Part shown: one piece after another, positions 6,601 through 30,591 of the stretch | How positions within the stretch are numbered: the first letter of the stretch is position 1 | How the letters are laid out: every line of letters starts with the position of its first letter | Virus record (IMG/VR): IMGVR_UViG_3300045988_180666 | Reading direction: 5' to 3' (one strand) | DNA from: a virus | Taxonomy: Duplodnaviria > Heunggongvirae > Uroviricota > Caudoviricetes | Length of the DNA stretch: 31,872 bases | Made by a program: the position numbers and the translations under genes | The notes under the pieces: generated by a model | What the model was told of the DNA's origin: nothing | What the model saw: the letters and a program-made list of their open reading frames with translations, nothing else | Databases searched by the model: none

Positions 6601-7102
6601 CCCCGGCAGCGTTGGTCGTGGGGTTGTTGGCGAGTCGCCAGCCCTTGCCATCGAGGAAGCCCGAGACGAAGTCGGGAGAGCCTATGGTATCGTCAAAACG
6701 AGCAGCGCCCTTGACGTGCAGCGCACTGACTGTCGCCAAGCCCCACGCCAGGATCTCTTCGATGCAAAGCTTGTAACCCCCATTCTCTTTTGTGGCGAGG
6801 CAGAAGCCTTTTTGACCAGCCTCGGAGTAGTCATCAGTGGCGATGGAGTGGGCGATGATGTCGCCCTCTTTGGAGAAAGAAAAGAGGTTGCCTATCTTGA
6901 TGCCCTTGAGAAAGGTGATGAGCCCATGGGCTGTATCGTCGTTGATGGCGGAGAGTTTATCGTTGTCAGCAGAGGAAGCATAGTCGAGCAGGGACAGGAA
7001 GGCGTTGCCAATGCGGCTTGCCGTATTGGCGTGCTTGACTCTCTCGTCACGGATGCCCTCGAAAGCCTCTCTGATTTTGTTGATGTCTTTATTTTCTGCC
7101 AT
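3623..7102 (-). CDS. large tail fibre / tail spike-like structural protein
   Basis: 1159 aa, the longest ORF in the window, with ATG at 7102 and a -7 promoter box just upstream. The central coiled-coil region carries an internal duplication (TTADYNALMSERF... / VTADYNALTTKIEG...). The C-terminal part is beta-rich. Confidence 0.7.
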   Translation of the reverse strand: MAENKDINKIREAFEGIRDERVKHANTASRIGNAFLSLLDYASSADNDKLSAINDDTAHGLITFLKGIKIGNLFSFSKEGDIIAHSIATDDYSEAGQKGFCLATKENGGYKLCIEEILAWGLATVSALHVKGAARFDDTIGSPDFVSGFLDGKGWRLANNPTTNAAGVQENRYGLELDNLIVRGTMRIFEMIISQLLGENDNRIFTAMLEVDHYDPETGRVYLDTHEGRMYNPFRKDDYVMVQQYNGMPSTENNHYVTKRYELIVTEVGSEGSGEDMLAWVKFKNFTSSMEGATAEQLITKRDTFVRVDNLTDPDRKGIIQMMTVGSDTPYMDIIYGLKTDPDNALKGRLGNLRGITHPLFGALSGFGEFLQNLYATGDFVLRRTGESIDTKIQMLQNQFATRFAQTSYEATEENNYLHNGQFLTAIGYNDEQLIDGWTIDDTDESQFWVDANGLPVMVNGAATVSGNHRVSIDNNEGRNMLHIQDSGIKQANDLIRKPGTHKEYTQPSAEKGEDGMNTTGDDYTEVQDTLYISARIYAKTAGTLTFGFEGCKAVEGKTNDLSAQSVSVPYSAEWQTVELNGKWNGTGDFVLRYTGDIYVALLTITDEPLDNLSKTVSTQILQTAKNIKLLGQNIDKVNGTTTQLGIELDAEKEAIRLYVDKRYGELNTTLSSRIEIEAGRIDLINTWQDSTNEKISGIYTDIDSITARVESVTNTANGTKAALAELKITVNGINTTVGKAATKDELNAAKNTLQGTMSDNYNALNSSVAEARRHADSVGSDIRNDYGPTISLVSQNADSWSSAVARFDANGKLKDTSYLITTADYNALMSERFNADGTLKNKGGLLVTADYNALTTKIEGVDGKILSEATIKTMIANGISSATITADQINLNGVVTANSNFKINKDGSMEALAGKIAGFTIQGTGLTNDPFTNDAYIIFRNDTHKCFAGIGGNVLPASSGQRAVARFENEDSSDWWGLGYNIAAILSAKNGAYNFAFTGAGNGVLNGWIGGYKYSRYALSTKNTIYNGYAKISENNVWLIYSYVSSSGITLPTLSEVRSALGCGSSTNFAVTFTVVAEPGTTNFFIYGRNKIKDKSDSYAWNKEELPLILDENCGNKDYIEMGQGDSATFLLVYNSTMGNKVSDYTTKYTARKLNHAY

Positions 7103-8918: not shown

Positions 8919-9720
8919 AAGCTATATTGTGGCTAGCCTTGTAGGCGGTGGAATCTCTATATTTGGCGAAGTCATCGATGTTATCGTCTATGAGGGAGAG
9001 TAGGCTGAAGAAGAGTTTGTCTCTCGCCCTGAGGTCGATGGAATCGCCGTTTTTTGTGATATGGCACCCGATGAAATCGTAGATGCGCATGATGGCGACC
9101 CGATGGGAGGTGGTCGGGAACTGAGCCTTGCGCTCCTCTTCGAGCAACTGGTCTATCTGTGCATCGGAGAGCTCTCGGCGCAGGAAGGTCTCGGCTTGGT
9201 CTATCTCGCCCTTGTGCGCCACGAGGTCATCGAAGGTAAGCTTGCCGGGGATGCCGCAGAACTTGTTGAGGATGTATGGCGACCAAATGAAGGAGCGGAT
9301 GGTGTTGAAGGCTTGCAAGCTGTCAGCCCAGCCCTCGACCTGTCGCAATCGGTTGATGACGTTGTGCTGGGCGTAGTCTCGCCTGTAGGCAAGCTCGTGC
9401 TCCATGGCATCGACACGAGCCTGTGAGGCTGGGGCGATGTTGTCGTTGGAGACCACCCCGAAGCCGTTGTCGGTCATGATGATGTCGTGGGAGTGGAGAC
9501 TATCGAGGAAGGTGGCCAGTATGACATAGTCTCTGGCGTAGCGCTGCAGGGGCGAGTCTTCGGTCGAGACCGCTTGCTCGGCATCTGCGCCCACGACGGT
9601 GGCGATAAGATCGTCAAAATGGTTCTCGAAGGATGGCTGCATCTTGGTGAAGACATCCTCGGAGGCTGCCGCCACGAATGGCAGCAGCTGCTCGAACTGG
9701 TTTATATCAATCTGTATCAT
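8875..9720 (-). CDS. hypothetical phage protein (possible head-tail adaptor)
   Basis: The track ORF is 8875..9762. The internal ATG at 9720 (MIQIDINQFEQLLPF...) is preferred because it overlaps the upstream gene by 14 nt rather than 56 nt. The start remains uncertain. Confidence 0.5.
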   Translation of the reverse strand: MIQIDINQFEQLLPFVAAASEDVFTKMQPSFENHFDDLIATVVGADAEQAVSTEDSPLQRYARDYVILATFLDSLHSHDIIMTDNGFGVVSNDNIAPASQARVDAMEHELAYRRDYAQHNVINRLRQVEGWADSLQAFNTIRSFIWSPYILNKFCGIPGKLTFDDLVAHKGEIDQAETFLRRELSDAQIDQLLEEERKAQFPTTSHRVAIMRIYDFIGCHITKNGDSIDLRARDKLFFSLLSLIDDNIDDFAKYRDSTAYKASHNIAYENNADDTTFFFAG

Positions 9721-11113
9721 CTTGTTGCTTTGATTTTTGGTTGTTGGAAACTTGCTTGGCATCCTTGTTCTCGTCGAGGGTGGTGAGCATGATGAGCGGC
9801 ACGTCTGGATAGACCTTCTGCTCCCAGTGGTTGAAGTAGATGACCACCCAGTGAACGGTCTCCATGAGGTCGTGGAACGCCTTCTCTATCGACTGCTTGA
9901 GGGTGAAGAGCTCTCGCTTGTCTGAGCCAGAGTTGTTGGTTTGGCTCTTGCCCGGTGTGGCGCCCACGAGATTAGGGTGGATGTTGTCGGCATAACACTG
10001 CATGTTGTTGCTCTCGGCGATGTCGTCGCTGTAGTCACCGCCATCCTTTGAGGTGTCGATGCGCGTGATGCGCACCATCTTTACCTCTTTGCCATCAGGT
10101 GTGGTGTAATAGCCCGCTATCCAGAGCTTGCCGCTATTCTCGATGCCTGAGATGAAGGAGCGGATTTTTTCTTTCTCCTTCAGCTTGCGCTCCTTTTGCT
10201 TTGCCTTGTCGGTGATGTGCTCCTCTTGGAAGATGCCACGCCAATAGTCGTTGTGTATCTCTACGAGGTAAGGGATGGCAGCGTGGTTTTTGAGCTTTGC
10301 CATCTTGCCGATGGCGATGAGCCGGGAGATGTCGTACCACTTGTCTCGGAAGATGGCGCTGTAGTAGGGCACGGGGTAGTATTGACTGCCAGGAGTAGGG
10401 AAGCGAGTCACGATGGCGAAGACTCTGTCTTTGCACTTTGCTCCACCCGTCTGTCTGGTCAGGGTCTGTCCGCTTTGACCGTCGAGCCCCATGCGCTGCT
10501 GTAGGTCGCCCAGTGGGTCTAGCTCGTCGAGGAGTGGCAGCACCTCGATGTTGTCGGGTTTGACGGCATTGCGCCAGTTGGTATAGAGCACGTATTCGGA
10601 GCGACCGTTTTTGCTCTGGGTGAACCGACAGTAGCACGCCTCTTTGTGCCGGATGCCCACGATGCGATCGCCCTTTTTGTTGAGGATGATGGCTGAGACA
10701 CAAAAGAAGAAGTACTTCATGTCTGTGATTTGCTCGAGGAAGAAGCGCGAGAGGTTGTTGTGCATCTTGAAGAGGTTGACCTCTTTGTCTTGTGTCGGAA
10801 GCTTTGTCTTGATGTCGTTGTACTGGAAGCCCATGCCGTAGCAGGTGAGCACGTTGAAGAGCTTGTTTTGCGCCATCACGCTGCTCTCGCCGATGTTTTT
10901 GATGAGCTGGTAGGGCAGCTTGTTGTCTGCCCCGAAGGGGATGTAGGTGTATCTTTGCTTGTCCACCTCTACGGAGACGGTGGGTGTGGTACCATCATCA
11001 TCGAAGATGGATGAGGACTCGACGAAGCCGCTGGTGGGCGACGAGGTCTGGTAATCGAGCACCTCGCCCATGGTGGCGTATGTGATGTCTATGTTATTGC
11101 TTTTGTCTGCCAT
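9707..11113 (-). CDS. putative portal protein
   Basis: The track ORF extends to 11284, but its first 57 codons overlap 11119..11379 and look non-protein-like. The ATG at 11113 (MADKSNNIDITYATMGE...) gives 468 aa. Size, the polar/acidic C-terminal tail and the position ahead of adaptor/tail genes suggest a portal. No motif-level proof. Confidence 0.45.
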   Translation of the reverse strand: MADKSNNIDITYATMGEVLDYQTSSPTSGFVESSSIFDDDGTTPTVSVEVDKQRYTYIPFGADNKLPYQLIKNIGESSVMAQNKLFNVLTCYGMGFQYNDIKTKLPTQDKEVNLFKMHNNLSRFFLEQITDMKYFFFCVSAIILNKKGDRIVGIRHKEACYCRFTQSKNGRSEYVLYTNWRNAVKPDNIEVLPLLDELDPLGDLQQRMGLDGQSGQTLTRQTGGAKCKDRVFAIVTRFPTPGSQYYPVPYYSAIFRDKWYDISRLIAIGKMAKLKNHAAIPYLVEIHNDYWRGIFQEEHITDKAKQKERKLKEKEKIRSFISGIENSGKLWIAGYYTTPDGKEVKMVRITRIDTSKDGGDYSDDIAESNNMQCYADNIHPNLVGATPGKSQTNNSGSDKRELFTLKQSIEKAFHDLMETVHWVVIYFNHWEQKVYPDVPLIMLTTLDENKDAKQVSNNQKSKQQDDTD

Positions 11114-11118
11114 AATCT

Positions 11119-11379
11119 TTATAAGTATATTGAATGGTCGTTGTATCTGAAGATGAAAATGTCTCTCACCTTGCGTATCTGGTGGTTGACTGGGTTGTAG
11201 AGGGTGTGGGTGCCGTTTTGCCAGGATGAGGACTTGACGAGCCATCCCCTGTACTGGATGATGGAACCATCGCCGCCCTTCCAACAGTCGATGTCAACGG
11301 GCGAGCGGTCGATGCGCGAGATGTCGAGGGCACGGCGCAGCTCGTTGATGTGTATTGCCTTGGGTGTCTTGTCTGCCAT
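11119..11379 (-). CDS. hypothetical small phage protein
   Basis: 86 aa with ATG at 11379. 5-nt gap to the putative portal start. Confidence 0.5.
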   Translation of the reverse strand: MADKTPKAIHINELRRALDISRIDRSPVDIDCWKGGDGSIIQYRGWLVKSSSWQNGTHTLYNPVNHQIRKVRDIFIFRYNDHSIYL

Positions 11380-11396
11380 ATATCTGAAGATGTTTT

Positions 11397-12458
11397 TTAG
11401 TTGAACGTATCGTCGAAGGAGTCGTCGAAGATGCGACCGCCCGTATTGTCGATGTTTTTGAACACGACATTCTGGACTCGCTGGGCATATTGGTAGCTGA
11501 AGGTGAACTCAGCCATGTCATCCAGCTCGTTGGTGCGCTCGCTCTTGGAGTCGGTGAAGGTAATCTCTTTGTCCTGTGTGTAGTCACGGAACAGATAGAT
11601 CTCATCGGAGCGCAGCAGGTCTTCGGCGAAGTGTGCCATGGACGGAGGAATAACACCTGTGTCGCCCTCGAAGGTGCGGGTCTCTTTGACGGAGTAGTTG
11701 ATCTTTTTGCCGCTGATGACGGCGCTCTTGCGCTCGAAGGTAGGTGCAATCTTCTTTTTGCCTAGGCAATAGAAGATCTCTTGGCACCCGAAGGAGTTGG
11801 TGAAGAGGAGCACCGGGTCGGCGACCGCCTCGGTATGGTCTATCTGGAAGTCTTGCACTCGCTTGCCCACGGTGACGGTGTAGGCGAAGAGGTCGCCACG
11901 GTCGGCATCGTAGTAACGGTCGGGCGAGACATCGAAGGTGGTGATGTTATTCACCGTATGGGTAGGGGTGGCATCGGCGGCGATATTGCCCTCCACGACC
12001 TTGCCGTCTTTGTAATATCGGGCTGTGACGGCGGCAGTGGTTCTGTCGGCACCTGCGGCATGGAGATATTCACGGTGTCCGAGCTGTGTGAGCTTGGCAC
12101 CATCGAGGAGGGTGAGGAAGTATTGGTCGAGGAACGACTGGCACGACATGTTGATGTCAACGGTGGCGTAGTAGGCGGTGAACTCGCACGACCAGTTGGC
12201 GACATCGCTCTCGCCATTGTGCTCGACAATCTTGATGGCGCACTTGGCGACCACGGTCGTGCGCACGGCATCGGAGATGAGCGTGCCGAGGTCGTAGATG
12301 GTGATGGTGCCAGCCACTGGGTAGTAAGTCTCGCTGAGCAGCTCTTCGCCCTCGCAGGTGATGGTAACGGTAGCGCGCTCGCCACCTATCTTGAAGGAGA
12401 AGGAGTCGAGCGCACTGGTGAACAATGGCGAAGATGGTTGGTTGGTAACTGTAATCAT
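11397..12458 (-). CDS. phage structural protein, function unknown
   Basis: 353 aa with ATG at 12458. First gene downstream of the -7 box at 12482-12489. Composition is beta-rich. Confidence 0.6.
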   Translation of the reverse strand: MITVTNQPSSPLFTSALDSFSFKIGGERATVTITCEGEELLSETYYPVAGTITIYDLGTLISDAVRTTVVAKCAIKIVEHNGESDVANWSCEFTAYYATVDINMSCQSFLDQYFLTLLDGAKLTQLGHREYLHAAGADRTTAAVTARYYKDGKVVEGNIAADATPTHTVNNITTFDVSPDRYYDADRGDLFAYTVTVGKRVQDFQIDHTEAVADPVLLFTNSFGCQEIFYCLGKKKIAPTFERKSAVISGKKINYSVKETRTFEGDTGVIPPSMAHFAEDLLRSDEIYLFRDYTQDKEITFTDSKSERTNELDDMAEFTFSYQYAQRVQNVVFKNIDNTGGRIFDDSFDDTFN

Positions 12459-12481
12459 ATCAATGTCTCATTAAAACGATG

Positions 12482-12489
12482 CAAAGATA
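12482..12489 (-). promoter_or_regulatory. -7 box TATCTTTG for the 11397..12458 / portal / tail operon
   Basis: GCAAAGATA lies 24 nt upstream of the ATG at 12458, directly downstream of terminator 12503-12541. Confidence 0.5.
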
Positions 12490-12502
12490 GGAAGGAAGGG
12501 GA

Positions 12503-12541
12503 GAAAATAAAAATACCTGATTGTCATCACGACAACCAGGT
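12503..12541 (-). terminator. intrinsic terminator after 12636..12947
   Basis: Minus-strand RNA: ACCUGGUUGUC-GUGAU-GACAAUCAGGU (11 bp, one G-U pair) followed by AUUUUUAUUUUC. Confidence 0.75.
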
Positions 12542-12635
12542 ATCGACTCATGGAGCGGACCACGCCTTGTTAAGCCTAAGGCTCCATTCCGAGACTGTTT
12601 TATGTTGTAAATGAAAAAAAATGTGCTTGTCTTGC

Positions 12636-12947
12636 TTACTCTTCGGGCTGTGCGCAGTTGATTATCCAGACGAGTCTGCCACCCTCGACAGACTTCATCT
12701 TGAAGCCGTGCTCGACCATGTACTCGGTGATGACGGGGATGGGAGCGACGACCATGCCGCTGATGGCCTCTTGTATATCTTTGGAGGATAGGAAGTCAAC
12801 GCATTGGCTGTATGGGTCATCGCCCGGTGTGTCGCCCTCGAAGTAAGCGTCGAGCGCCATGCGCACATAGTCGATCTTGCTCTCTTGCTCTGACTGTTGC
12901 TGCTCGTCGCTGTTAGCACTGAAGCCCATCACACGCATACGTTTCAT
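12636..12947 (-). CDS. hypothetical small acidic protein
   Basis: 103 aa with ATG at 12947. ATGA-type 4-nt overlap with the upstream gene, and followed by a strong intrinsic terminator. Confidence 0.55.
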   Translation of the reverse strand: MKRMRVMGFSANSDEQQQSEQESKIDYVRMALDAYFEGDTPGDDPYSQCVDFLSSKDIQEAISGMVVAPIPVITEYMVEHGFKMKSVEGGRLVWIINCAQPEE

Positions 12948-13213
12948 GCCTCACCTCCTTTCGTCTCCAGTGCTATGTTGATGGTCTTGAAGAGCTTGCT
13001 CATGTGGTCGAAGTTGTTGAGCATGAGTAGCACTTTGTCGGCACCGCCGAGGTCTTCGACACAGTTGGTCACCACCTCGTCTGAGATAAGCACCTTTTTG
13101 ACTTGCTCTAGGTACTCGATGAAGTAGCTGAGCTGGTTGACATCCATCATTTCTACGAGCGCATTCCAGACCTCTGCTGTCATGTGCATATTTGTTGCGT
13201 TGTTTGTGTTCAT
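12944..13213 (-). CDS. hypothetical small protein
   Basis: 89 aa with ATG at 13213. 4-nt overlaps on both sides indicate translational coupling. Confidence 0.55.
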   Translation of the reverse strand: MNTNNATNMHMTAEVWNALVEMMDVNQLSYFIEYLEQVKKVLISDEVVTNCVEDLGGADKVLLMLNNFDHMSKLFKTINIALETKGGEA

Positions 13214-13461
13214 GCTACGACTCCTCCCATCAGATAACCACCAAAGAAAACCACTGCCATGAAGGCTGCGAAGCCTAGTGTGGCCTTGACCACCTCGCCG
13301 TAGGTCACGCTCTCGTCGCAGAGTGCGGTGAAGGTCTCGCTCTCGGTCTTGGCGAGCTTCTTGATTTCACACTTGAGGGTATTGATACCCTCCTCTACGC
13401 TGATGCCTGCAGGTCTCACCTGCGCATCACTAATTAAAATTGAATTCTGCATAATTGCCAT
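13210..13461 (-). CDS. small tail-anchored membrane protein (holin-like or exclusion-type, unproven)
   Basis: The track ORF starts at 13575. The first 38 codons are AT-rich and contain a 14-bp inverted-repeat pair, so the ATG at 13461 (MAIMQNSILISDAQ...) or at 13452 is preferred. The C-terminus ATLGFAAFMAVVFFGGYLMGGVVA is a clear hydrophobic helix. Confidence 0.5.
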   Translation of the reverse strand: MAIMQNSILISDAQVRPAGISVEEGINTLKCEIKKLAKTESETFTALCDESVTYGEVVKATLGFAAFMAVVFFGGYLMGGVVA

Positions 13462-13709
13462 CTTATAACCATTATAGACCGACCTTGATGTATAAATACA
13501 ATGGTGGCGGTCACATTCACCGTTGGTTATAAGATGGTAGCTTTCCCAGCGAAGGGCAAGTATCTTACGGATCATGCAACCGCCATATTGAAAAGACCTT
13601 TTTCCCGCTGCCGGGAAAATGATACTTTATAGGCATAAAAAAAGCCCACGGCGTGAAGCCTAGGCGAAACAGTCGCCATCGCTGAGTAGATTACTACTAT
13701 CTTATAACC
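13458..13709. repeat. three copies of ATCTTATAACC (two extend to the 14-mer CCATCTTATAACCA in inverted orientation)
   Basis: 13460-13470 (+), 13525-13535 (inverted) and 13699-13709 (+, at the predicted start site of the orphan promoter). Confidence 0.6.
13637..13665 (-). terminator. intrinsic terminator about 45-70 nt downstream of the orphan promoter
   Basis: Minus-strand GCCUAGGC-UUCAC-GCCGUGGGC (8 bp with one bulge) followed by U7. Confidence 0.6.
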
Positions 13710-13714
13710 GATGG

Positions 13715-13746
13715 CAAAAGTACGAAGAATAATTGGAACCGCCAAA
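13715..13746 (-). promoter_or_regulatory. full consensus promoter (-33 TTTG, 20-nt spacer, -7 TACTTTTG) with no ORF directly behind it
   Basis: Plus-strand CAAAAGTA at 13715-13722 and CAAA at 13743-13746. Confidence 0.55.
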
Positions 13747-13816
13747 AAAAAAGCGAGAAATTTTGAAATAAATGACTTTTTTATGTTTTAGAGCATAAAA
13801 CAAGGGGGTGAGGAAC

Positions 13817-13848
13817 GAAAAAGCCCCGGATGCTCACGCACCCGAGGC
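13817..13848 (-). terminator. intrinsic terminator of the AT-rich three-gene operon
   Basis: Minus-strand GCCUCGGG-UGCGUGAGCA-UCCGGGGC followed by UUUUUC, beginning 7 nt after the stop at 13855. Confidence 0.65.
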
Positions 13849-13854
13849 TGACAG

Positions 13855-14247
13855 TTATTTTTGGAAATAAACTTTTAAAGGGATTGAATTCTCCACATTG
13901 CCAATTTTGAAAGAGAACTGATAGTTGCCCTCTGCAGGGAACTGGAGGTCGGAGAACTCAAAGATGAAGTTGCTGAAGAGAAACTCATCTGAAGGGTGTG
14001 GCTCAATCTTGGAATTGATGGGCTGGCCAAGAATCATCTTGCCAGTGCTCATCTCTGTAACCTCTGCCGAGAACTCTTGCTGAAGTTTGCTTTCCTCGCT
14101 GTTCATCTTAACTCTCGCTACCATGAAGAGGTTGCTCTTAGGCAGCGGTGCTTTTCTTACCACATAGTGGTCAAAAGTGCCCACGATGGTAAGTTTGCCG
14201 TCATTATCTTGTGCAAAGTCACACAATGCAAGAATATCTATGTTCAT
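13855..14247 (-). CDS. hypothetical protein, third gene of AT-rich ORFan operon
   Basis: 130 aa (MNIDILALCDFAQDNDGKLTIVGTFDHYVV...), predicted all-beta by composition. ATG at 14247 overlaps the upstream stop by 4 nt. A terminator hairpin begins 7 nt after the stop. Confidence 0.65.
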   Translation of the reverse strand: MNIDILALCDFAQDNDGKLTIVGTFDHYVVRKAPLPKSNLFMVARVKMNSEESKLQQEFSAEVTEMSTGKMILGQPINSKIEPHPSDEFLFSNFIFEFSDLQFPAEGNYQFSFKIGNVENSIPLKVYFQK

Positions 14248-14684
14248 TTTATATGTCCTTTAATGTTAGACTCGATAGCCGAGTGTTTGAAAAGTTTTTT
14301 ATAATTGTCGAATGAATATTTGAGTTTGCTCACCGTGCGCTTGTTTGTGCTCACTAGGTTGGCTCCATGTCTGCCAGAGATGCCTTCCTTGGTATTGAAC
14401 TTCAGAGAATTTCTTTTGGAGTCAACCCAAAGCCTGATGGCATCGCCTTGTATCTTGTCACCCACATTGCCATGGACGTTGAGATCTTCTCGTATTTTCT
14501 TGTCCTCTTCGTTGAGCTCAAGAGCTTCGGTGATTTCTACGGAACTATTTCGGTCTAGTTCGTATAATGTCATCTTTTTGCCCGTGATAGGTTCCTCTTT
14601 GAGTCCCTTCCACTCAGCCCTTCTGGCAATGACATCAGCTTTTTTGCCCTCTATGATTTCACCTTCTTTGATATATATAGCCAT
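14244..14684 (-). CDS. hypothetical Lys-rich protein, second gene of AT-rich ORFan operon
   Basis: 146 aa. Its start overlaps the upstream stop in a TAATG arrangement (shared nt 14684). No motif recognised. Confidence 0.65.
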   Translation of the reverse strand: MAIYIKEGEIIEGKKADVIARRAEWKGLKEEPITGKKMTLYELDRNSSVEITEALELNEEDKKIREDLNVHGNVGDKIQGDAIRLWVDSKRNSLKFNTKEGISGRHGANLVSTNKRTVSKLKYSFDNYKKLFKHSAIESNIKGHIK

Positions 14685-15112
14685 TATTGGATACTTTTTT
14701 GCATTGATTTTTCACTGAAAGAGAATACCTCAGCCATATCATCAGGCGAGGTGATGCTCATGAGCGATGGGCTGACCTCAAGAGCCACCTCAATGTCTTC
14801 AATGGAAGCATCTTTATCTTGTTTGATGATGTACTTATCCTCATGCTCTTCAATCTCTTTATCAAACTCTTCTTCGGTAATATTGCCGTCAAGCATTTCG
14901 CAATATAGTTTGAAGTAGTTGCGCTCACGTGTGCGGTTGTTAACGGCACGAGTCATCAACTCCTTGAGTCTGTCGGCAGTACTGATGTTGAAAAAGTTAG
15001 CCTTATTGGTAACACCAGCGAATGCAACCTTGCCAGTACCTTTGTCTTGTATAGCCACAACAGGGCTGCCATCAGTTTGGTATGTTGTATATATAGTCGT
15101 TGTATTGCTCAT
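14684..15112 (-). CDS. hypothetical protein with acidic C-terminal half, first gene of AT-rich ORFan operon
   Basis: 142 aa with ATG at 15112, about 30 nt downstream of a full consensus promoter (15143-15174). Acidic stretch EEEFDKEIEEHEDKYIIKQDKDASIEDIEVALE. Confidence 0.65.
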   Translation of the reverse strand: MSNTTTIYTTYQTDGSPVVAIQDKGTGKVAFAGVTNKANFFNISTADRLKELMTRAVNNRTRERNYFKLYCEMLDGNITEEEFDKEIEEHEDKYIIKQDKDASIEDIEVALEVSPSLMSITSPDDMAEVFSFSEKSMQKSIQ

Positions 15113-15142
15113 AATTCACATCCTGTTTATATTAACACGGTG

Positions 15143-15174
15143 CAAAGATACGGATATTTTTTGTAAATCGCAAA
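15143..15174 (-). promoter_or_regulatory. full consensus promoter of the AT-rich three-gene operon
   Basis: Plus-strand CAAAGATA at 15143-15150 and CAAA at 15171-15174, an exact 20-nt spacer. The ATG at 15112 follows. Confidence 0.65.
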
Positions 15175-15299
15175 TTTAATGATAAATTTAACAACAAAAA
15201 TTGCAATAAAGATTGGAAAATGGTATATAAAAAATGCTCGACCGCTTTTTGGCTCTTGCCAGACGCTTTCGCCGCAGGCGAAAATTTTTGGAAAATGAG

Positions 15300-15321
15300 G
15301 GGGAAGGTTTTAGCCTTCCCC
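15300..15321. terminator. GC-rich hairpin after radC (possible bidirectional terminator)
   Basis: GGGGAAGG-ttttag-CCTTCCCC, 20 nt after the radC stop. U-rich tracts follow on both strands but are not immediately adjacent. Confidence 0.5.
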
Positions 15322-15340
15322 TTACCTTATTATATATATA

Positions 15341-16024
15341 TTATAGCTTTCCTTTGTCGTGGTAGCTGTAGAAGCCATCCTCAGCCAAGATGATATGGTC
15401 CATCAAGAAAAGTCTCATCACCTCGCACGCCTTGGCTATCTTCTGCGTGAGCATATCGTCCGCCTTGCTCGGCTGCGTGCTGTTCGATGGGTGGTTGTGT
15501 GCCACGGCGATGATGGTTGCATTGTTGAGCACGGCTTCTTTCATTATCAGTCGAACGTCCACCGCTGTCTCGGTGATGCCTCCCTCGCTGAGCTTGGTGC
15601 ACTTTATCAGCCTAAAGTTTTGGTTCATCAGCACTACCCAAAAGCCCTCTGTCTCATTGCAGCCTATCATTGGGCGAAGATAGTTGTAGAGTGCCAGGCT
15701 GCTGCCTAGGTCGGTGTTTCTCGCTACCTTTTCCATTTGGTAGCGTCTGCCTAGCTCGATGGCTGCCTGTAGGGCTATCGCCTTGCAGTCTCCAATTCCT
15801 GGTACCACTTCCAGGTCTTCTATTCTCGCCTTGCCGATGTTGCGAAGCGAGTTGCCCATGATGTTATAAATCTGTCGTGCCTGCTCTTGGCTGTCCTTGG
15901 TACCTGCCCCTCTGTTGATTACCAAAGAAATCAAGTCAACGTTGGTAAGGGTGTCGAAACCTTGGTTATAGGCTCTGTACTGCGGTCTCTCCTCCATACA
16001 AAGATTGTTATAATTTTGTCTCAT
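15341..16024 (-). CDS. radC: RadC-family JAB/MPN domain protein
   Basis: 227 aa. The N-terminal part is HhH-like (LEVVPGIGDCKAIALQAAIELGRR). The C-terminal JAMM motif is intact: E in ETEGFWVVLMN, then AHNHPSNSTQPSKADDMLT (HxHx7SxxD). Confidence 0.85.
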   Translation of the reverse strand: MRQNYNNLCMEERPQYRAYNQGFDTLTNVDLISLVINRGAGTKDSQEQARQIYNIMGNSLRNIGKARIEDLEVVPGIGDCKAIALQAAIELGRRYQMEKVARNTDLGSSLALYNYLRPMIGCNETEGFWVVLMNQNFRLIKCTKLSEGGITETAVDVRLIMKEAVLNNATIIAVAHNHPSNSTQPSKADDMLTQKIAKACEVMRLFLMDHIILAEDGFYSYHDKGKL

Positions 16025-16039
16025 ATCTTTTGTTATTTG

Positions 16040-16564
16040 TTAGTTATACATTCTCTTTGTTCTCGCTAGGAACATCGCTCCCATCACTTGTGCGCCACAT
16101 TCGGCTAGCTCGTTGGCGAACTCTCGGGCGGTCGCTCCGCTCGTCACCACGTCGTCGAAGATGATGACTTTCTTTCCGCTGAAGTACTCTCTATCGAGTG
16201 CCACTCTGTAGTCGAAGCTCTCACACACTCTGTCTGTGCTGAAGTGCTTGGCTGTGCGCTCTCCATAGATGGAAATGTGCTCGTTTCCGTTCTGTACCTT
16301 TGCGCCTTGGCTCACCTTTTGGGCGAAGCGAGAAAAGCGCTTGGTGTACTTCTTTGAGTTGGCTGCTGGAGCGCAAACCATCACGAAGTCGCTGGCTTTG
16401 TCGCCATAGGTGTTGACGAAAGAGCTGACCACCATATCGGCAGCTGCGTCTGTCGCCCACTGCTTTCCATCCTTGAAGGCAAAGATGAAGTTTCTCACTT
16501 GCTCTGCTTGTGCTGAGCGGTCGAAACGCTTGGAGCTGTACTCGTAATAATTGAAAGTTTTCAT
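16040..16564 (-). CDS. ComF-like phosphoribosyltransferase (PRTase) domain protein
   Basis: 174 aa. Canonical PRPP-binding loop KKVIIFDDVVTSGATAREFANELAECGA. The upstream segment VCAPAANSKKYTKRFSRFAQKVS resembles the ComF-type R.F.Q region. No N-terminal Cys4 zinc finger is present. Only 15 nt separate it from radC. Confidence 0.8.
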   Translation of the reverse strand: MKTFNYYEYSSKRFDRSAQAEQVRNFIFAFKDGKQWATDAAADMVVSSFVNTYGDKASDFVMVCAPAANSKKYTKRFSRFAQKVSQGAKVQNGNEHISIYGERTAKHFSTDRVCESFDYRVALDREYFSGKKVIIFDDVVTSGATAREFANELAECGAQVMGAMFLARTKRMYN

Positions 16565-16745
16565 ACGCTTAAAATTTTTATTCTAGCCAGAGGGAGGAAG
16601 GAGCTTTTTTATTTGAACTCGTCTTTGCCTGCCCGTCTGAGAGTTTTTTTTATTCTGTCCGTCGGTCGTTTTTGTCGCTTTTTACGGTGCGATGCAGACG
16701 AGCGGAGAAGAGGTATGAAAGCCAAGGAATTTTGCAAAAAGTTTA

Positions 16746-17299
16746 TGGAAAACCGTCATCTCTGATTGCGGAAGGCTGCCGAAAAGTTTTTGGAAAATAG
16801 ATTTATCGGTACTTGGTGCATGCCGTCCGCCGTACCTTTGCACCCGAAAAAGAGATAATGACCGATGGATAACCGATAAAGGGAAAAGCTCTCGGACAGG
16901 AAAAGCGGGCAAAGAAAAGGCTCTGCCTTACCTTGGTGGTTAAGCCTTAGCGACGTTTGAGCGCCATCACGGTCACCACCGCTTGAAAATTCGCAAATTT
17001 TAACCCTAGCGTATGAAATGAAAGATGGAAAATTTGCGTCATCAAAAACACCATGTTTTTCAGACTTCAGGAGGAAAAACATACCTTGGAGCGATGAAAT
17101 CGCAGCATTTGGCATGCTTCGACCCCGAGGTTGAAGATGCCGAATGTGTCGTTTTGCGACAGGTTTTCCACACCCACGGATTGGAAAACCCCGATTTTAT
17201 CGTGGTTTTAGGGATTCAAAGGGAAAATAATTCCCCTTTGTCGGCGATAGCACCCCCCACCGCCCTACGCCCGAGCGCGCCTTCCGCCCCCTTGGAAAA
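16746..17299 (+). repeat. cluster of nine same-strand GGAAAA motifs (five as TGGAAAA) plus one inverted copy
   Basis: GGAAAA hexamers start at 16747, 16792, 16882, 16899, 17027, 17073, 17183, 17222 and 17294, with the inverted copy at 17164-17170. A further TGGAAAA lies at 15289-15295. Confidence 0.55.
16833..16840 (+). promoter_or_regulatory. plus-strand -7 box TACCTTTG inside the ORF-poor segment
   Basis: GTACCTTTGCAC (16832-16843) is identical to the 12-mer at 25902-25913. No good -33 box. Confidence 0.35.
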
Positions 17300-17359
17300 G
17301 ACGGAATATGTAAAAGACCGTTAACGTTTTTGTAGGAATGTAAAAAGCCAAAAGGCACG

Positions 17360-17392
17360 AAAAAAGGGAACACGCTTCGCAGCGCACTCCCC
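17360..17392 (-). terminator. intrinsic terminator after terL
   Basis: Minus-strand GGGAGUGCGC-UGCGAA-GCGUGUUCCC (10 bp including three G-U pairs, hence strand-specific) followed by U6. Confidence 0.7.
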
Positions 17393-17462
17393 TTATCGGC
17401 GGTCAAGCAAGAATGCCAGCCACCTAACTTATATAAGAATCGTACTATCTAAAGAAATCAAA

Positions 17463-19064
17463 CTATAGCATGGAACCCGTGGCGATGTAGCCATCAGCCT
17501 GAGGGTATTTCTCCATGCCAATCATGAGCGTGTCGTAGGCATCGGAGCCATCGGTGCGAGCCTCCAACTTATCCTCCTCGGTCTCAGCCAGCTTCTCGCC
17601 TCGCTTATCCTTCTTGCCGTTGTAGACCCCGGCCAGGCGGATGGAGATGAGCAGGTCTTCGTTGTTCTCGCTGTTGATCATCGAGCGATGCTCAGCCTTG
17701 CCGAGGAACATGCGGTTGAGCAGAAGCATCTTTTCGAGATGTCCCATCGGGTTGCCCAGATAGACCTCGTTGACATACCAGCCATGGTCGGTGAGGTAGT
17801 CGGTGATGAAGGTATGGAAGTCATCGTTCATCAGGGCGTAGTTGTTGCCCACGAAGGTGGAGTCGTAGTAGAAGTTGACCTCTTTGCACCGATGGTACTC
17901 ATAGTACTGCATGAACTTGTCGAGCAGGGCTGGCAGCTTCTCCTCATACTTCACGAAGATGCTCTTGAGGCAGCGTGCCTCGCCCCGCAGGTTGTCTTGT
18001 CCGACGGCTATCCAGTTGATGAGGGCGTTGGCATCGAAGGCGATGCAGAGCGGACGGTCGGGGTCAACGTCGGCATCCATTCTGGAATCTACATGCTTGA
18101 GCTTGTCGATGTCGTAGCCCAAGCCATCGAGGTAGGCGAGGTTGGGCGCCGTGTATAGGTTGGCATCCCTGAGGTTGGAGTAGAAGCCATCGAGCGAGAT
18201 GGAAGGTCGCTTGCACATGATGGAGGTCTGGAAGGTGAGGGCAGGGAGGTCTCGCTTCATCTGCTTGATGAACTCCATGCCGAGCACCTCGATGTTATAG
18301 ACCGATGAGTACTCTTTATAGAAGAGTGCCTTGGAGCGCAGTTGCGCCAGGAGCTGACCAATCTCTCGGAGTCGGCGCTGGGCATAGCCTGAGACATGGC
18401 CCGAGGTCTTGATGCGGTTGCGTATGTCATACTCCTCTACCACGAGCGAGGCGATGGCGTCGATGAGCAGCTGGTCGCAGTCTTTCTTGTAGTTGAGGAA
18501 CCAGGAGCCCTTCTTGGTCACGGGCATATCAGAGGTGATGAGCATGCCATGGTGGTAGTAGTGCTGGCCGAAGAGGTTGACGTTGCCTCGATTGGCAGGG
18601 AAGGTCTCGTCTTTGAGCTGTTCGAAGTTGATGAACTTCGCCTCGTCGATGTCGAGGTAGTCGAGCGAGAGGGAGTTGGAGGTACCCTTGCGGTCTTGCG
18701 AGATGATGGTACCGATGGAGCCGTTATAGAAAGAGATGGTGTTCTCCCAGTTGCTGGGCGGTATGACCGGGTCGGGCCATCCCAGTTTTTTGGGAGGCTT
18801 GACCCCGATGAGATAATGCTTGCCCCGGTGGAAGCCCCATCGCTCCCAGTGCTGAAGCATCGACGGTATGGTGTTGGTGAGGCATCGCTTGGTGTTGGCG
18901 GATACGAAGCCGCCGTTGCTGCCAGGCATGCGCTGCATGTTGCGCAGGTTGAAGGTGGCGTGGAGAATGCTCTTGCCGATGCCTCGACCGCCCACGACCA
19001 CGTTGTCGCGGGCGGAGATGAGGTTGACCTCCATCTGGGCTGGGTTGAGATATTGATCTATCAT
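17463..19064 (-). CDS. terL: terminase large subunit
   Basis: 533 aa. Walker A is VVGGRGIGKS and Walker B-like is LSLDYLDIDEA, followed by a C-terminal nuclease-sized domain. The start overlaps the upstream gene in an ATGA arrangement. Confidence 0.85.
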   Translation of the reverse strand: MIDQYLNPAQMEVNLISARDNVVVGGRGIGKSILHATFNLRNMQRMPGSNGGFVSANTKRCLTNTIPSMLQHWERWGFHRGKHYLIGVKPPKKLGWPDPVIPPSNWENTISFYNGSIGTIISQDRKGTSNSLSLDYLDIDEAKFINFEQLKDETFPANRGNVNLFGQHYYHHGMLITSDMPVTKKGSWFLNYKKDCDQLLIDAIASLVVEEYDIRNRIKTSGHVSGYAQRRLREIGQLLAQLRSKALFYKEYSSVYNIEVLGMEFIKQMKRDLPALTFQTSIMCKRPSISLDGFYSNLRDANLYTAPNLAYLDGLGYDIDKLKHVDSRMDADVDPDRPLCIAFDANALINWIAVGQDNLRGEARCLKSIFVKYEEKLPALLDKFMQYYEYHRCKEVNFYYDSTFVGNNYALMNDDFHTFITDYLTDHGWYVNEVYLGNPMGHLEKMLLLNRMFLGKAEHRSMINSENNEDLLISIRLAGVYNGKKDKRGEKLAETEEDKLEARTDGSDAYDTLMIGMEKYPQADGYIATGSML

Positions 19065-19690
19065 AGTGCTTTGTCCTCCTTGACTTCTTCTGTAGGTGTA
19101 TATTCCAAGAGCTGTTCGTCGTAGTCCTCGGCCTCGATCTTGACGAGATCCATGGAGTTGTCGGTGTATTTCTTGACGAGCTTCTTGATGGTCTGCATCA
19201 CGTTAGGGATGCGCTTGAGACCCAAGTGTCGTGGGTCGGTGGTAGGGATGAAGACCTGAGGCTGAATCTGGTCGTAGCCGTTGTCGGTAGGATCCTCTTT
19301 GTCGAGCAGGTGATATTTGCCGTATGCAGCTGCGGCGGCAGCCATGGCTCGGGCATCGCCCATGGAGTCGGCCTTGTCGTAGGTGCGCTGTATCATCTGG
19401 TCGAAGCGATAGCGGGCGAAGTCTTTTGACACTTTTTGCAGGTTGCCCAATATGAGCTTGATGAGGTGCAGGTCGTTGTAAGCCATCATGCGCTGCACCT
19501 TGTAGTCGTGCATATCTTTATAGACCAGCTCTTGGTCGCTCTTGCGAGGGTTGATGAGCCACCAGGCATAGAGGGCACGGATGCGCAAAATGCGGTCGCG
19601 CACTGGGGCGGGCACATTTTGCGCATCCATCTCTTCGGGTGTGCGGTCCATCAGTTCGATGATGGCATCGATGTTGGCGGGTTCTCTCAT
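19061..19690 (-). CDS. possible terminase small subunit / packaging protein
   Basis: 209 aa, helical, translationally coupled (4-nt overlap) to terL on one side and to the HTH ORF on the other. The call rests on position only. Confidence 0.4.
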   Translation of the reverse strand: MREPANIDAIIELMDRTPEEMDAQNVPAPVRDRILRIRALYAWWLINPRKSDQELVYKDMHDYKVQRMMAYNDLHLIKLILGNLQKVSKDFARYRFDQMIQRTYDKADSMGDARAMAAAAAAYGKYHLLDKEDPTDNGYDQIQPQVFIPTTDPRHLGLKRIPNVMQTIKKLVKKYTDNSMDLVKIEAEDYDEQLLEYTPTEEVKEDKAL

Positions 19691-19968
19691 ATTCTAATCT
19701 CCTCTAACATTTGGTTCAGATATTCGTGTGTGCGCTGCACCGCCTGTGGCGAGCCAGCCGCAGCCAGGTCTAGCTTGTTTTTGCGTATCTGCTGGCGCAC
19801 CGTCGCCATGCCCAAGTAATAGACACGGTGAAGCTCGGAGTCGGGCTTCAGTATCTCGTCACGCAGATCGTCCTCGCTAATATCCAAAAGGACGGACATC
19901 TCGGATATCGGAGTCAACGTCTCCGCGAAGTCTTGCACTTTTTTGAGTAATTCCTGAGAAATTTCCAT
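19687..19968 (-). CDS. small HTH-like DNA-binding protein (TerS N-terminal-domain-like)
   Basis: 93 aa. The segment ISEMSVLLDISEDDLRDEILKPDSELHRVYYLGMATVRQQ resembles the HTH/recognition layout of small-terminase N-termini. ATG at 19968 lies 92 nt inside the upstream ORF. Confidence 0.4.
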   Translation of the reverse strand: MEISQELLKKVQDFAETLTPISEMSVLLDISEDDLRDEILKPDSELHRVYYLGMATVRQQIRKNKLDLAAAGSPQAVQRTHEYLNQMLEEIRI

Positions 19969-20452
19969 TGATTCTTAAGCTTTGAGTGTCACAATGAAGG
20001 GTATATCCGCCGAAGAGGTCGGCGAAGACCTGCGGGTCGGTGGTGATGATGGTTGACTCGTCACGGCTGCCGTAGGTCTGGTTTTGCGAGGTGACGACCG
20101 ACACGACGTGCTGGTCGTTGCGGAAGAGTGTCACCTTGGAGTGGTTTTGCCCCAGGAACACATCGTTGAAGCAGGTCTGCATCATGCGCCACAGCTGCAC
20201 GGTCTTTTTGCTCGCCTTGACATCGAGCAGCATCGTTGCCGACAGGATGCTGCCCGACTGGCGCATCAGGCGGAAGCCTCGCAGGAACTCCTCGGAGGTG
20301 GAGTAGGAAGACACCCACACATCTGCAGGGCCTATCTGGGAGAGAATCCACTTGATGAGACCGAGGGTGTGGAGGTGCCGCCCGAAGTAGGCTTGCGTCT
20401 GGGCATCGGCGATAGGACGGAGCAGGTCACTGACCTTGACCTTGGTCGGCAT
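19877..20452 (-). CDS. PLD/HKD-superfamily (Nuc-like) protein
   Basis: 191 aa. The single HKD-type motif GQNHSKVTLFRNDQHVVSVVTSQNQT fits the Nuc-like pattern (H.K...D......GS.N.T). The preceding VWVSSYSTSEEFLRGFRLMRQSG...LLDVK matches the first half of the fold. Confidence 0.55.
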   Translation of the reverse strand: MPTKVKVSDLLRPIADAQTQAYFGRHLHTLGLIKWILSQIGPADVWVSSYSTSEEFLRGFRLMRQSGSILSATMLLDVKASKKTVQLWRMMQTCFNDVFLGQNHSKVTLFRNDQHVVSVVTSQNQTYGSRDESTIITTDPQVFADLFGGYTLHCDTQSLRINGNFSGITQKSARLRGDVDSDIRDVRPFGY

Positions 20453-21916: not shown

Positions 21917-23026
21917 TTACTCCTTGCCCTCAGCTCCGGTATCGTCTGCAGAAGAATTCTTCTGCTCTGCATCGCTAGCTGTGTTGCTGCTTGCAGGATC
22001 AGCACCTGAACCCTTTGTGATGAGCGATGTGGTACCATCGTTTGTGATGAACAGGGCTCGTTCTTTATTGATGCTCTCGTACTGGCAACCTAAGAACTTG
22101 GTGGCGATGAAGTCGAGCTTCCAAGGGTGGTACTTTTCTACGCTGATCTTCTCCTCGTCGCTGTTGTTTGCCTCGTTGACACCCACGAGCATATTGTTGC
22201 GAGTGGTGAGCTGGAAGAACGGAGCGTTCTTCTTGTTGATGAGTGGTACCATCTCAACGTTGTCGAAACCCTCGACGGTGTTGTGGTTGTAACCGGTATT
22301 GTATGGCACATTGCCAAACTTATTGAGGTAGTTGCGGTTGTAGAGATTGATGAACGCCTGTGGAACGTAGAGATAAAGCTTCTCTTCGCCAATCAGTTCT
22401 TCGTCAGCCTCCTCGCAAATGGCCTGTGCGAAGTCAACGGCGTTATCGCTGCTGATATTCTTACCACTGCCCAAAATATCTGAAACTTTGATGAGGTTGC
22501 CGAGGTCTCGAGACAGCTTGCCATTAGTCAACTCAGTCTTGGCGATGGTATCGAAACCATTGAAGAGGTCTTTTGAGCCTTTGCCCTCGTCGTTGCGCAC
22601 GGCATCGAAGAGGTGGAGGTTGAGGTTCTTGCCCAGCTTGAGCGCCAAGAGCTGCAGCACCTGAAGGGTGATTGGCACGTTCTTAAGCGCTTCGCCATTC
22701 ATGGCGTTGGCCCCCCAAATGGTGGAATAAACTGAGTTCGGGGAGAACTTGATGTCAACGTTGCCGAGGAACACCTGCAAAGTGCGAGGTGTAATCTTTA
22801 CGCCACCATCGCCCACGCGGTTCTCGTCGTATGGACCAAACTCTGCGTTGCCGAGCAACTCGCCCACGGTCTCTGAAACTCTGATGCCCGGGCGCAGGGT
22901 CATGTACTTGAGTGACTGAGCCAAGCCTTTGGTAGGCATCGTAATCAACTTCGAACGGTAAGTTTTCGCAGTGTTCTGCAGCTGTACATCGACATCTACA
23001 GGCACAATGAATTTATTATCTGCCAT
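21917..23026 (-). CDS. putative major capsid protein
   Basis: The ATG at 23026 (MADNKFIVPVDVDV...) lies 1 nt after the protease/scaffold stop and gives 369 aa. Position and size are typical of a capsid protein. It has a long polar C-terminal tail. Confidence 0.65.
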   Translation of the reverse strand: MADNKFIVPVDVDVQLQNTAKTYRSKLITMPTKGLAQSLKYMTLRPGIRVSETVGELLGNAEFGPYDENRVGDGGVKITPRTLQVFLGNVDIKFSPNSVYSTIWGANAMNGEALKNVPITLQVLQLLALKLGKNLNLHLFDAVRNDEGKGSKDLFNGFDTIAKTELTNGKLSRDLGNLIKVSDILGSGKNISSDNAVDFAQAICEEADEELIGEEKLYLYVPQAFINLYNRNYLNKFGNVPYNTGYNHNTVEGFDNVEMVPLINKKNAPFFQLTTRNNMLVGVNEANNSDEEKISVEKYHPWKLDFIATKFLGCQYESINKERALFITNDGTTSLITKGSGADPASSNTASDAEQKNSSADDTGAEGKE

Positions 23027-23027
23027 A

Positions 23028-30280: not shown

Positions 30281-30510
30281 TACGAAACATAATTCGTAAG
30301 ATGAATCCTTATATATAATAAGGTGTATAAAATATATCGTATAATCTCAGCAGTGATATCCAACTCGTTAGTCCTGCCGCCGCAACTAGTTTCGGGTAAG
30401 AAGTTGGTAAACAACATCTTATCCGATTTCTGTTTTTCTATTGGAACTATATCAGAACGAAATACTTTCCATTCCACATTCCTTTGATATTCAATATTTA
30501 ACACTTATTA

Positions 30511-30542: not shown

Positions 30543-30565
30543 CACATTGATAATTTATTGTGCAA
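30540..30565. promoter_or_regulatory. 7-bp perfect inverted repeat TTGCACA-N12-TGTGCAA overlapping the TetR -7 box / start site (likely autoregulatory operator)
   Basis: Read directly: arms at 30540-30546 and 30559-30565. Confidence 0.5.
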
Positions 30566-30591
30566 CCAAATCTCGATGGAGGTACTTCGTT

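Follow-up and report, generated by a model that had tools for sequence, protein, structure and literature searches.

The interval between terL, the gene of the large terminase subunit, and the conserved family gene p353 was analyzed in a window of 31,872 nucleotides, i.e., the whole stretch of DNA in the IMG/VR virus record IMGVR_UViG_3300045988_180666. The interval, which spans about 5 kb (12459-17462), is an accessory-gene hotspot and as such an ordinary, known kind of phage feature. Taken as a whole, it is very probably a moron hotspot at the junction of packaging and portal genes that carries swappable cassettes, including a phosphoribosyltransferase (PRTase)-RadC pair which we infer to be ShosTA-like. 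An earlier note on this DNA had suggested a site of cargo exchange of this size between a conserved terL and a conserved p353/portal block, and the comparison of related phages supports this. Nearly all genes of the window are encoded on the minus strand, which applies to all features given below unless another strand is named.

In the related loci the flanks are conserved, the content between them is variable, and the cassettes assort independently. The loci were collected by a search of IMG/VR with terL, which yielded 72 loci, and 65 of them also contain p353 and form the basis of the hotspot counts. The left anchor terL (17463-19064) is present in 72 of 72 related loci. The gene p353 (11397-12458), with which the right-hand conserved block starts, occurs in 65 of 65 loci reaching that far, with identities between 38 and 100%. 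Both flanks are kept in every locus that extends into them, with terS and terL upstream and p353, o86, the portal gene, p295, and p265 downstream. The gap between terL and p353 ranges from 1773 to 8762 bp with a median of 5998 bp, and 47 gene orders and 48 families of plus-strand open reading frames (ORFs) were counted, the ORFs being called with a home-made codon score and from ATG starts only. Most reverse-strand ORFs in the related loci had negative codon scores and were dropped as spurious.

The PRTase-RadC pair was found in 45 loci and a cassette of three small genes, o142-o146-DUF6941 (the trio), in 28. The two assort independently, since 23 loci contain both, 22 only the PRTase, five only the trio, and 15 neither. 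Cassettes are present in some and absent from other phages whose terL is 92-100% identical. Cassettes with 99-100% identity are shared by phages whose flanking genes differ by 6-25%, and are missing from closer relatives. Furthermore, two recombinant loci were identified. In L009, a terL which is 94% identical to that of the window is followed by p353 and portal genes with identities of 39-43%, and L061 shows the reverse arrangement. Because these loci join the terL of one clade to the p353/portal genes of the other clade, the hotspot is also a breakpoint between genome modules. The earlier note had treated the whole island as cargo. This is right for the variable content, but not for the near-constant pieces that frame the variable zones, namely the non-coding stretch after terL, the leader of gene o121 together with o121 itself, and o103.

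The island consists of three cassettes, each with a predicted promoter and terminator, and not of at least five separately terminated units as had been proposed. Three were counted because terminator hairpins and promoter motifs could be placed at their borders. The first comprises a long hairpin leader, the genes for the PRTase and RadC, and a terminator. The second comprises a promoter, o142-o146-DUF6941, and a terminator, and the third a promoter, a leader, o121-o89-o103, and a terminator. A mini transcription unit assumed before is no unit of its own but represents the promoter and leader of o121-o89-o103, because its putative terminator (13637-65) is located within the conserved leader downstream of a TAnnTTTG box (13715-13722).

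Four of the five terminators proposed earlier are present, whereas the one at 13637-65 was not found by the scan. The terL terminator (17360-17392), a GC-rich hairpin with a T-run, was read from the sequence. It shows compensatory changes at alignment columns 88-115 and follows terL in 38 loci, where it precedes nine different first genes. The other three were predicted by the scan: the PRTase-RadC terminator (15300-15321), which accompanies RadC in 20 loci, the trio terminator (13822-13849; 12-pair stem with 8 GC pairs and a T-run), which follows DUF6941 in 11 loci, and a terminator after o103 (12512-12544; 15-pair stem and a T-run). In total, the region 11000-19500 contains 17 terminator-like sites, compared to 8.5 ± 3.0 in shuffled sequences. 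The idea that shared terminators act as recombination linkers mostly failed, as the terminators accompany their own cassette.

For the Bacteroidota -7 motif TAnnTTTGC, the window contains 21 copies, with 3.7 ± 2.0 expected. Minus-strand copies immediately precede o142, the o121 leader, and p353. The predicted trio promoter (15143-15178) is a canonical Bacteroidota promoter (TTTG, 20 bases, TATCTTTG). A -7 box TATCTTTG at 12482-12489 was assigned by motif match to p353 and the downstream morphogenesis genes. L006, L017, and L024, although lacking the trio, have its promoter region at the corresponding position behind the conserved stretch. The homology breakpoints of PRTase-RadC and the trio lie at about 15215-15233, between a terminator and the next promoter. 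Base composition alternates among the units, as noticed before: the guanine plus cytosine (GC) content is 46.2% in the island (12459-17462) and 53.1-53.5% in the flanks, and steps from 50-51% in PRTase-RadC to 42-43% in the trio and 48.5-55% from o121 to o103.

Several other genes occupy the same site in related phages. Among them are a SocA/Panacea antitoxin-domain protein with a neighboring gene, a 338-residue protein matching the PADLOC candidate family PDC-S02, a DEDDh exonuclease with a BRCT domain, DUF5053 and DUF2335 proteins, and many proteins without a known family. A tyrosine recombinase together with an N6 DNA methylase was found twice. In these two loci (L036, 16866-18450; L048, 13350-15429) the recombinase is located beside a methylase fragment, and the arrangement may represent a phase-variable methylase or what is left of an integrated element.

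Accessory genes of this kind are well known from the lambdoid morons and from the defense hotspots of the phages P2 and P4. Shared features are the fixed site between core genes, cargo that differs among close relatives, a predicted promoter and terminator for each cassette, a deviating base composition, and toxin-antitoxin-like, defense-like, and methylase genes among the cargo. The present site differs in being located between terL and the portal block of Segatella/Prevotella phages, in its Bacteroidota-type promoters, in cargo that mostly lacks a known family, and in its double role as a junction between the packaging and structural modules of two clades (L009, L061). In the proposed scenario, a family of tailed phages of Segatella/Prevotella with genomes of about 44 kb would receive cargo between terL and p353-o86-portal. 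Each cassette would have its own promoter and intrinsic terminator, with one to three genes between them, and share the orientation of the late genes. Recombination would add, remove, and swap such cassettes, with breakpoints between one terminator and the next promoter, and the cassettes would be expressed on their own and may serve conflicts among phage, host, and rival elements.

Of the cargo, the PRTase-RadC pair is of most interest. The PRTase gene (16040-16564) codes for a ComF/ShosT-like protein of 174 amino acids with an intact FDDxxTSG loop for phosphoribosyl pyrophosphate (PRPP; PF00156, E 4.5e-7). It matches PADLOC models of two toxins, ShosT (PDLC03962, E 1.6e-9, over nearly the whole protein) and PsyrT (E 9e-9), as well as the comF model TIGR00201 (E 1.6e-7), the latter with 31.5 bits and therefore far under the cut-off of 233.55. 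The match to a second PADLOC ShosT model is limited to the PRPP loop. The RadC gene (15341-16024) follows after 15 nt and codes for 227 amino acids with an N-terminal UPF0758 domain and a JAB domain with the motif HNHPS...D (PF04002, E 1e-35; PF20582, E 7e-12; TIGR00608, 152.9 bits with a cut-off of 133.85). The metal motif HxHxxxxxxxxxxD of the JAB domain is present, and AHNHPSNSTQPSKADD is kept in all copies. No ShosA match was found for RadC in PADLOC.

The PRTase and RadC form an obligate pair. In all hotspot loci with the PRTase (45 of 45), the next gene downstream is RadC, and the same holds for 46 of 46 further loci, which came from an alignment-based scan of viral contigs and in which terL, where detected, is 28-58% identical. 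No locus was found with an intact PRTase lacking RadC. Decay was observed in three cases, with the PRTase lost in L067 and truncated in L071, and with one deletion cutting both genes in L062. Even where terL is only 28-58% identical, the pair lies behind terL, either immediately or with other cargo in between, and it is therefore old and widely shared cargo.

The closest annotated homologues of the PRTase are encoded on plasmids of Bacteroides, Parabacteroides, and Phocaeicola (31-34% identity, E 1e-23 to 1e-27). In three Bacteroidales plasmids, a SLOG family protein starts one base after the PRTase homologue. On a plasmid of Segatella copri DSM 18205, the PRTase homologue (ShosT, E 7e-14) is followed by a DprA protein (ShosA, E 7e-67), which together make a true ShosTA pair, and the PRTase of the window is 30% identical to this ShosT. 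Among six unannotated gut phage scaffolds, five contain PRTase-SLOG, and one (L166) contains PRTase-RadC with a PRTase of the plasmid-type lineage. Directly after this pair, L166 (MT836146.1, 2383-3060) carries genes for 78 and 137 amino acids, which look like another toxin-antitoxin-type pair. When the PRTase and DUF6941 were used in word-based protein searches, the matches were almost exclusively close relatives. By sequence comparison, the PRTase is homologous to the ShosT group, and its relatives have DprA or SLOG partners.

ShosTA has been described as a type IV toxin-antitoxin defense system, in which the PRTase ShosT disturbs purine metabolism and ShosA is a DNA-binding antitoxin resembling DprA (PMC11961720, PMC12961424). 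The phage pair has the same layout, with a PRTase of the ShosT/ComF-like group first and a DNA-processing protein directly downstream, on mobile elements. It differs in its partner, which is a RadC (JAB plus UPF0758) and not a DprA-like protein, in its PRTase of 174 amino acids, its long hairpin leader, and its tailed-phage carrier. From the comparison we infer a partner-swapped ShosTA-like module, in which RadC would replace DprA or SLOG. By using or depleting PRPP, the PRTase would interfere with nucleotide metabolism, and RadC, as the DNA-processing partner, would hold this effect in check. A retron, as suggested by the combination of non-coding RNA and PRTase and by a weak match to the PADLOC retron model PRTase_III-A, was rejected, as no reverse-transcriptase domain occurs among the scanned representatives of the ORF families.

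The genes for ComFC, DprA, and RadC are also linked to DNA uptake in competent bacteria. The phage pair resembles this set in its comF match, in its full-length RadC, and in relatives that are paired with DprA or SLOG. However, it is a phage-borne, obligate two-gene operon, its comF score is far under the cut-off, and the zinc-finger N-terminus of ComFC was not seen. In an inventory of weapons of invasive elements, Iyer et al. (2017) listed PRTase and RadC domains with roles unknown (PMC5512222). The search of the literature yielded no paper describing a PRTase-RadC pair or its hairpin leader. The expectation that the island might hold an undescribed system therefore fits in part: the PRTase belongs to the ShosT/ComF-like group, which is known from a described toxin-antitoxin defense system, but no paper was found on its RadC partner or on the leader, and Rfam gave no match to the leader.

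The PRTase-side half of the non-coding segment (16565-16983) accompanies the PRTase cassette among the loci. It contains a long unbranched hairpin (16604-16852), predicted with RNAalifold, which is a candidate for a Frpo-like single-strand promoter or for a structured 5′ untranslated region (5′-UTR). The hairpin has a length of about 250 nt and 46 predicted pairs, of which 15 show compensatory changes, with 95% of the cells paired. These values were reached by 0 of 500 shuffles, a comparison that is somewhat inflated because the structure was derived from the tested alignment itself, and slid controls gave at most six compensatory pairs. Leaders belonging to PRTases with just 47-52% identity to that of the window still align and share invariant blocks. 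A covariance model of the hairpin core scores 130 bits in the window and was found upstream of every PRTase-RadC pair of the aligned lineages. Leaders from the clade with a terL identity of 52% were missed by the model. Their long hairpin is of another type and has 16 compensatory pairs and, at its base, the same inverted box.

The hairpin was also found outside the phage hotspot. Scaffold L163 (MT835483.1, 1365-3883) contains three copies, each 61-85 nt before a different gene. These genes code for a 161-residue protein, a 193-residue protein starting with MPNWC, and PRTase-SLOG. The arrangement in L163 looks like an anti-defense island of a leading region. Because three unrelated genes follow the copies in L163, the element is not specific for the PRTase. 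The Bacteroides plasmid L161 contains two weak copies, one before an LPD28 gene and one before PRTase-SLOG.

The far arm of the hairpin contains an inverted Bacteroidota promoter-like motif (16812-16841), which lies on the plus strand, opposite to the genes (CTTG, 17 bases, TACCTTTGC), with TACCTTTG as the inverted -7 box. The spacer of the trio promoter is slightly longer, with 20 bases. All 11 copies examined have the antisense box TAnnTT(T/C)G at the hairpin base, and in nine of them a TTG precedes it by 17-18 bases. Of 15 other PRTase leaders, 12 also contain an antisense -7 box and have none on the sense strand, with about 0.2 antisense boxes per leader expected by our estimate. On the sense strand, TAnnTTTG is present in none of the 11 hairpin copies and was not found up to 420 nt upstream in 14 of the 15 other PRTase leaders. 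The consensus folding energy is -21.9 kcal/mol for the antisense and -15.1 kcal/mol for the sense strand. A backward promoter on the far arm would read into the gene only if the template strand is folded.

Single-strand promoters of this kind, named Frpo, have been described in the leading regions of conjugative plasmids (PMC11541004). The phage hairpin is similar to Frpo and ssi elements in several ways. It forms a long stem of about 120-250 nt, imperfect and without branches, immediately before accessory genes, and the boxes lie in the stem arm far from the gene and point the wrong way in duplex DNA. Several copies in a row (L163), and plasmid copies near ssb and methylase genes, are further similarities. 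LPD28 and TraM-recognition genes are also located near the plasmid copies. The likeness refers to the published description of Frpo. In contrast to Frpo, the boxes follow the Bacteroidota consensus (TTG, 17-18 bases, TAnnTTTG) and not the -35/-10 type, and the element is under selection in double-stranded DNA tailed phages, for which no single-stranded entry stage is known. By this analogy, the hairpin may represent an undescribed class of Frpo-like promoters of Bacteroidales mobile elements with a backward -33/-7 promoter on the far arm, which we put forward as a tentative suggestion that could easily prove wrong. Such a promoter would require a single-stranded, folded template strand for its activity, and the hairpin would switch on partner-swapping PRTase modules (DprA, SLOG, RadC) as well as other early cargo.

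The hairpin could instead be an ordinary structured 5′-UTR, e.g., a PyrR-like autoregulatory site, or an element for RNA stability. Its transcription would then come from a promoter further upstream or from read-through, and the inverted box would be incidental or belong to an unrelated antisense transcript. PRTase-fold proteins such as PyrR bind leader RNA, and weak PyrR matches were also seen. The compensatory changes are equally compatible with an RNA, several G-U pairs occur on the sense strand, and the element is selected inside phages with double-stranded DNA. This explanation has to account for a sense-strand box that is missing from 14 of 15 leaders and 11 hairpin copies, for an antisense -7 box whose structural position is the same in all 11 copies and which also occurs in 12 of 15 further leaders, for an antisense strand that folds at least equally well, and for the position of the element before three unrelated genes in L163. 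We consider a structured 5′-UTR a serious candidate, although one which we would not bet on. A similar question arises for the pair downstream, which may be no toxin with its neutralizer but an establishment or counter-defense module for the incoming or replicating DNA of the element itself, with the leader providing very early expression. The PRTase matches comF, the leader resembles Frpo single-strand promoters, and plasmid homologues are located near ssb, N6 methylase, LPD28, and TraM-recognition genes, a setting in which establishment and anti-defense genes are found (PMC11541004). A function at DNA entry would also agree with the proposal that PRTase and RadC domains of invasive elements act there on nucleic acids or nucleotides (Iyer et al., 2017; PMC5512222). 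However, a tailed phage injects double-stranded DNA, so that a role in single-strand entry is not directly transferable. The sole homologue with a partner of a described type is a full ShosTA pair, a toxin-antitoxin defense, and the pair is dispensable, being absent from 19 of 65 close relatives. An establishment module therefore appears possible but rather doubtful.

At the level of the whole island, one might assume a fixed, fast-evolving block of early or lysis-related genes, in which the variation is divergence beyond detection. Indeed, o121, o89, and o103 are kept at 35-66% identity in most loci, and some absences could be divergence. A five-fold variation of the gap length, unrelated domain families at the same position, and cassettes that are 99-100% identical despite flank differences of 6-25% and missing from closer relatives make such a block highly improbable. 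The explanation as a moron hotspot with a ShosTA-like pair has its own weak points. The promoters and terminators are motif predictions, the terminators are mostly cassette-specific and not shared linkers, and the family counts are approximate due to the codon-score, ATG-only ORF calling. Hints of lysogeny are limited to an opposite-strand Cro/CI-type helix-turn-helix gene and to recombinases in the hotspots of two relatives. As for the pair, the PRTase scores about equally (30-36 bits) with ShosT, PsyrT, ComF, and generic PRTase models and is without the N-terminal part of the crystallized ShosT. The family profile aligns with this 432-residue ShosT in the PRPP loop only (E 0.05). Plasmid PRTase-SLOG pairs near ssb, methylase, and LPD28 fit establishment or anti-defense equally well.

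The non-coding segment between terL and the PRTase gene had been described as ORF-poor and RNA-like. It is non-coding, but it is not one unit, as the stretch next to terL (about 16984-17359) is tied to terL and the leader (16565-16983) to the PRTase. Identified in the alignment of relatives, the stretch 16984-17359 is 70-100% identical in every locus with a terL identity of at least 92%, regardless of the cargo that follows. It shows frame-breaking indels and an invariant G-rich run (GGGCGTAGGGCGGTGGGGGGT), and no promoter box was found in it on either strand. The fold z-score is -3.6 for 16984-17462, which includes the terminator, and covariation is weak. A search of Rfam with 16565-17462 gave no match with E up to 1. 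A 119-residue ORF (16756-17115) was rejected as spurious due to its negative codon score. An antisense RNA driven by the plus-strand box at 16833-16841 and crossing the conserved stretch was considered and dropped, as loci without the box have the stretch as well.

The products of the trio cassette (13855-15112; 42% GC) are three small cytoplasmic proteins, and the start and stop codons of its genes overlap. The three genes always occur together (28 of 65 loci) and are confined to the phage family of the window. They had been taken for ORFans, which holds for o142 and o146, without a match in Pfam, PHROGs, PADLOC, and NCBIfam, but not for the third gene, which belongs to Pfam DUF6941 (E 6e-21) and is elsewhere a lone chromosomal gene. 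The model of the DUF6941 protein has a predicted local distance difference test score (pLDDT) of 89, and the fold search with it gave only generic matches to Ig-like beta sandwiches.

The o121 promoter with its -7 box (13715-13722) and the conserved leader (13576-13764), assigned by motif, form the right anchor of the main variable zone. Almost every locus has this leader at 74-100% identity, even in the clade with a terL identity of 52%, and a weak hairpin (13600-13619) lies within it. The promoter and leader are up to 100% identical between phages with terL identities of 52%, which exceeds the conservation of the o121 protein and points to recent exchange or strong constraint. The genes o121, o89, and o103 (12636-13575) are near-constant, with o121 in 63, o89 in 49, and o103 in 64 of the 65 loci. 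Only o121 encodes a hydrophobic helix, which is C-terminal and of membrane type (Kyte-Doolittle 19-residue maximum 2.0, compared to 1.0 for o89 and 1.3 for o103), so that these genes are not the membrane-protein trio they were thought to be. In other loci, genes of the families F3, F6, F13, and F22 or the recombinase with the methylase are inserted between o121 and o89. Three copies of GTTATAAGATRG, one of them inverted, are located around the o121 promoter and inside the start of o121 (13458-13471, 13524-13537, 13697-13708). They were considered as operator sites and rejected, as the set occurs in just 9 of 65 related loci. None of the island genes matches a virion family, in agreement with the earlier impression that they have no obvious virion function. 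In PHROGs, Pfam, and NCBIfam, nothing was found for p353, o86, o142, o146, o121, o89, and o103, and p353 has no family or PDB match.

Downstream of p353 and o86, the gene at 9707-11113 codes for a protein of 468 amino acids without a match in sequence searches. It can be assigned as the portal by its modeled fold, because fold matches agree with synteny with a Porphyromonas phage. The AlphaFold model was built on 26 homologues and is of moderate confidence (mean pLDDT 64, predicted template modeling score 0.57). In a Foldseek search of the PDB, the best 50 matches were all phage portals, with E values down to 1e-5 and a probability of up to 1.00, and the template modeling scores against these PDB portals were low (0.26-0.38). 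A wrong assignment of this gene, mentioned in the earlier note as a possible weakness, is thus countered by the fold search. The following DUF6712 protein takes the position of the adaptor in the Porphyromonas phage BK068109. Pairwise BLASTP comparisons of the portal candidate, p353, and p295 with proteins of Porphyromonas and Microcystis phages were not significant.

On the minus strand, the gene order is a ClpP-type protease, a 372-residue gene, several small genes, terL, the 5-kb region, p353, o86, the 468-residue protein, and the DUF6712 protein, followed by further genes, among them one for a coiled-coil protein of 1159 amino acids. The protease (23028-24053) has a coiled-coil C-terminal tail and is likely a prohead protease plus scaffold, and the 372-residue gene after it (21917-23035) is in the position of the capsid gene. 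The location of the head genes upstream of terS and terL is common to Porphyromonas phages. An annotated Porphyromonas phage shows the same order with protease, capsid, terL, one small gene, portal, adaptor, and tape measure. The near-adjacency of terL and portal in this relative agrees with the assumption that the two genes are normally neighbors. The 1159-residue protein (3623-7102), which is probably a tape measure or tail protein, matches phrog_22546 (E 8e-97), a family of unknown function.

The element can be assigned to the tailed phages of Segatella/Prevotella, because its terL has matches in metagenome-assembled genomes of Segatella copri (92% identical) and of Prevotella (52% identical) and is similar to known terminases. 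The terL product has a weak phrog_2 match, tblastn showed 34% identity over 98% of its length to annotated large terminase subunits, and its identity to terminases of Bacteroidota and Microcystis phages is 26-34%. A nucleotide search of GenBank phages with 9000-20000 gave no match, and neither a tRNA nor an Rfam match at gathering score was found across the window. On the plus strand, a low-GC stretch contains a Cro/CI-type helix-turn-helix gene (29903-30280) and a TetR-family regulator (30547-31188). L001, a near-identical viral contig, stops close to position 30281 of the window, and further related contigs stop 10-11.5 kb upstream of terL. The contig ends together with the regulators hint at a genome end or a lysogeny module near 30 kb.

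Segatella (Prevotella) copri is a major bacterium of the human gut, and its phages are poorly characterized. The mapped exchange site with its 48 ORF families, most of them without a known family, provides a list of candidates for defense and counter-defense in Bacteroidales, and this cargo catalogue is part of what the analysis adds. The hotspot type is already known; new are the partner swap in PRTase-RadC and the inverted-promoter hairpin common to phages and Bacteroidales plasmids. According to the comparative evidence, ShosT-like PRTases seem to swap their DNA-processing partner among DprA, SLOG, and RadC, which gives the long-unexplained RadC a testable role. If the hairpin is a Frpo-like promoter, the Frpo principle would extend to Bacteroidota and to phages. 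Its compensatory upkeep in phages with double-stranded DNA would then imply a single-stranded or cruciform stage that is sensed, or a cassette that senses DNA replication or damage.

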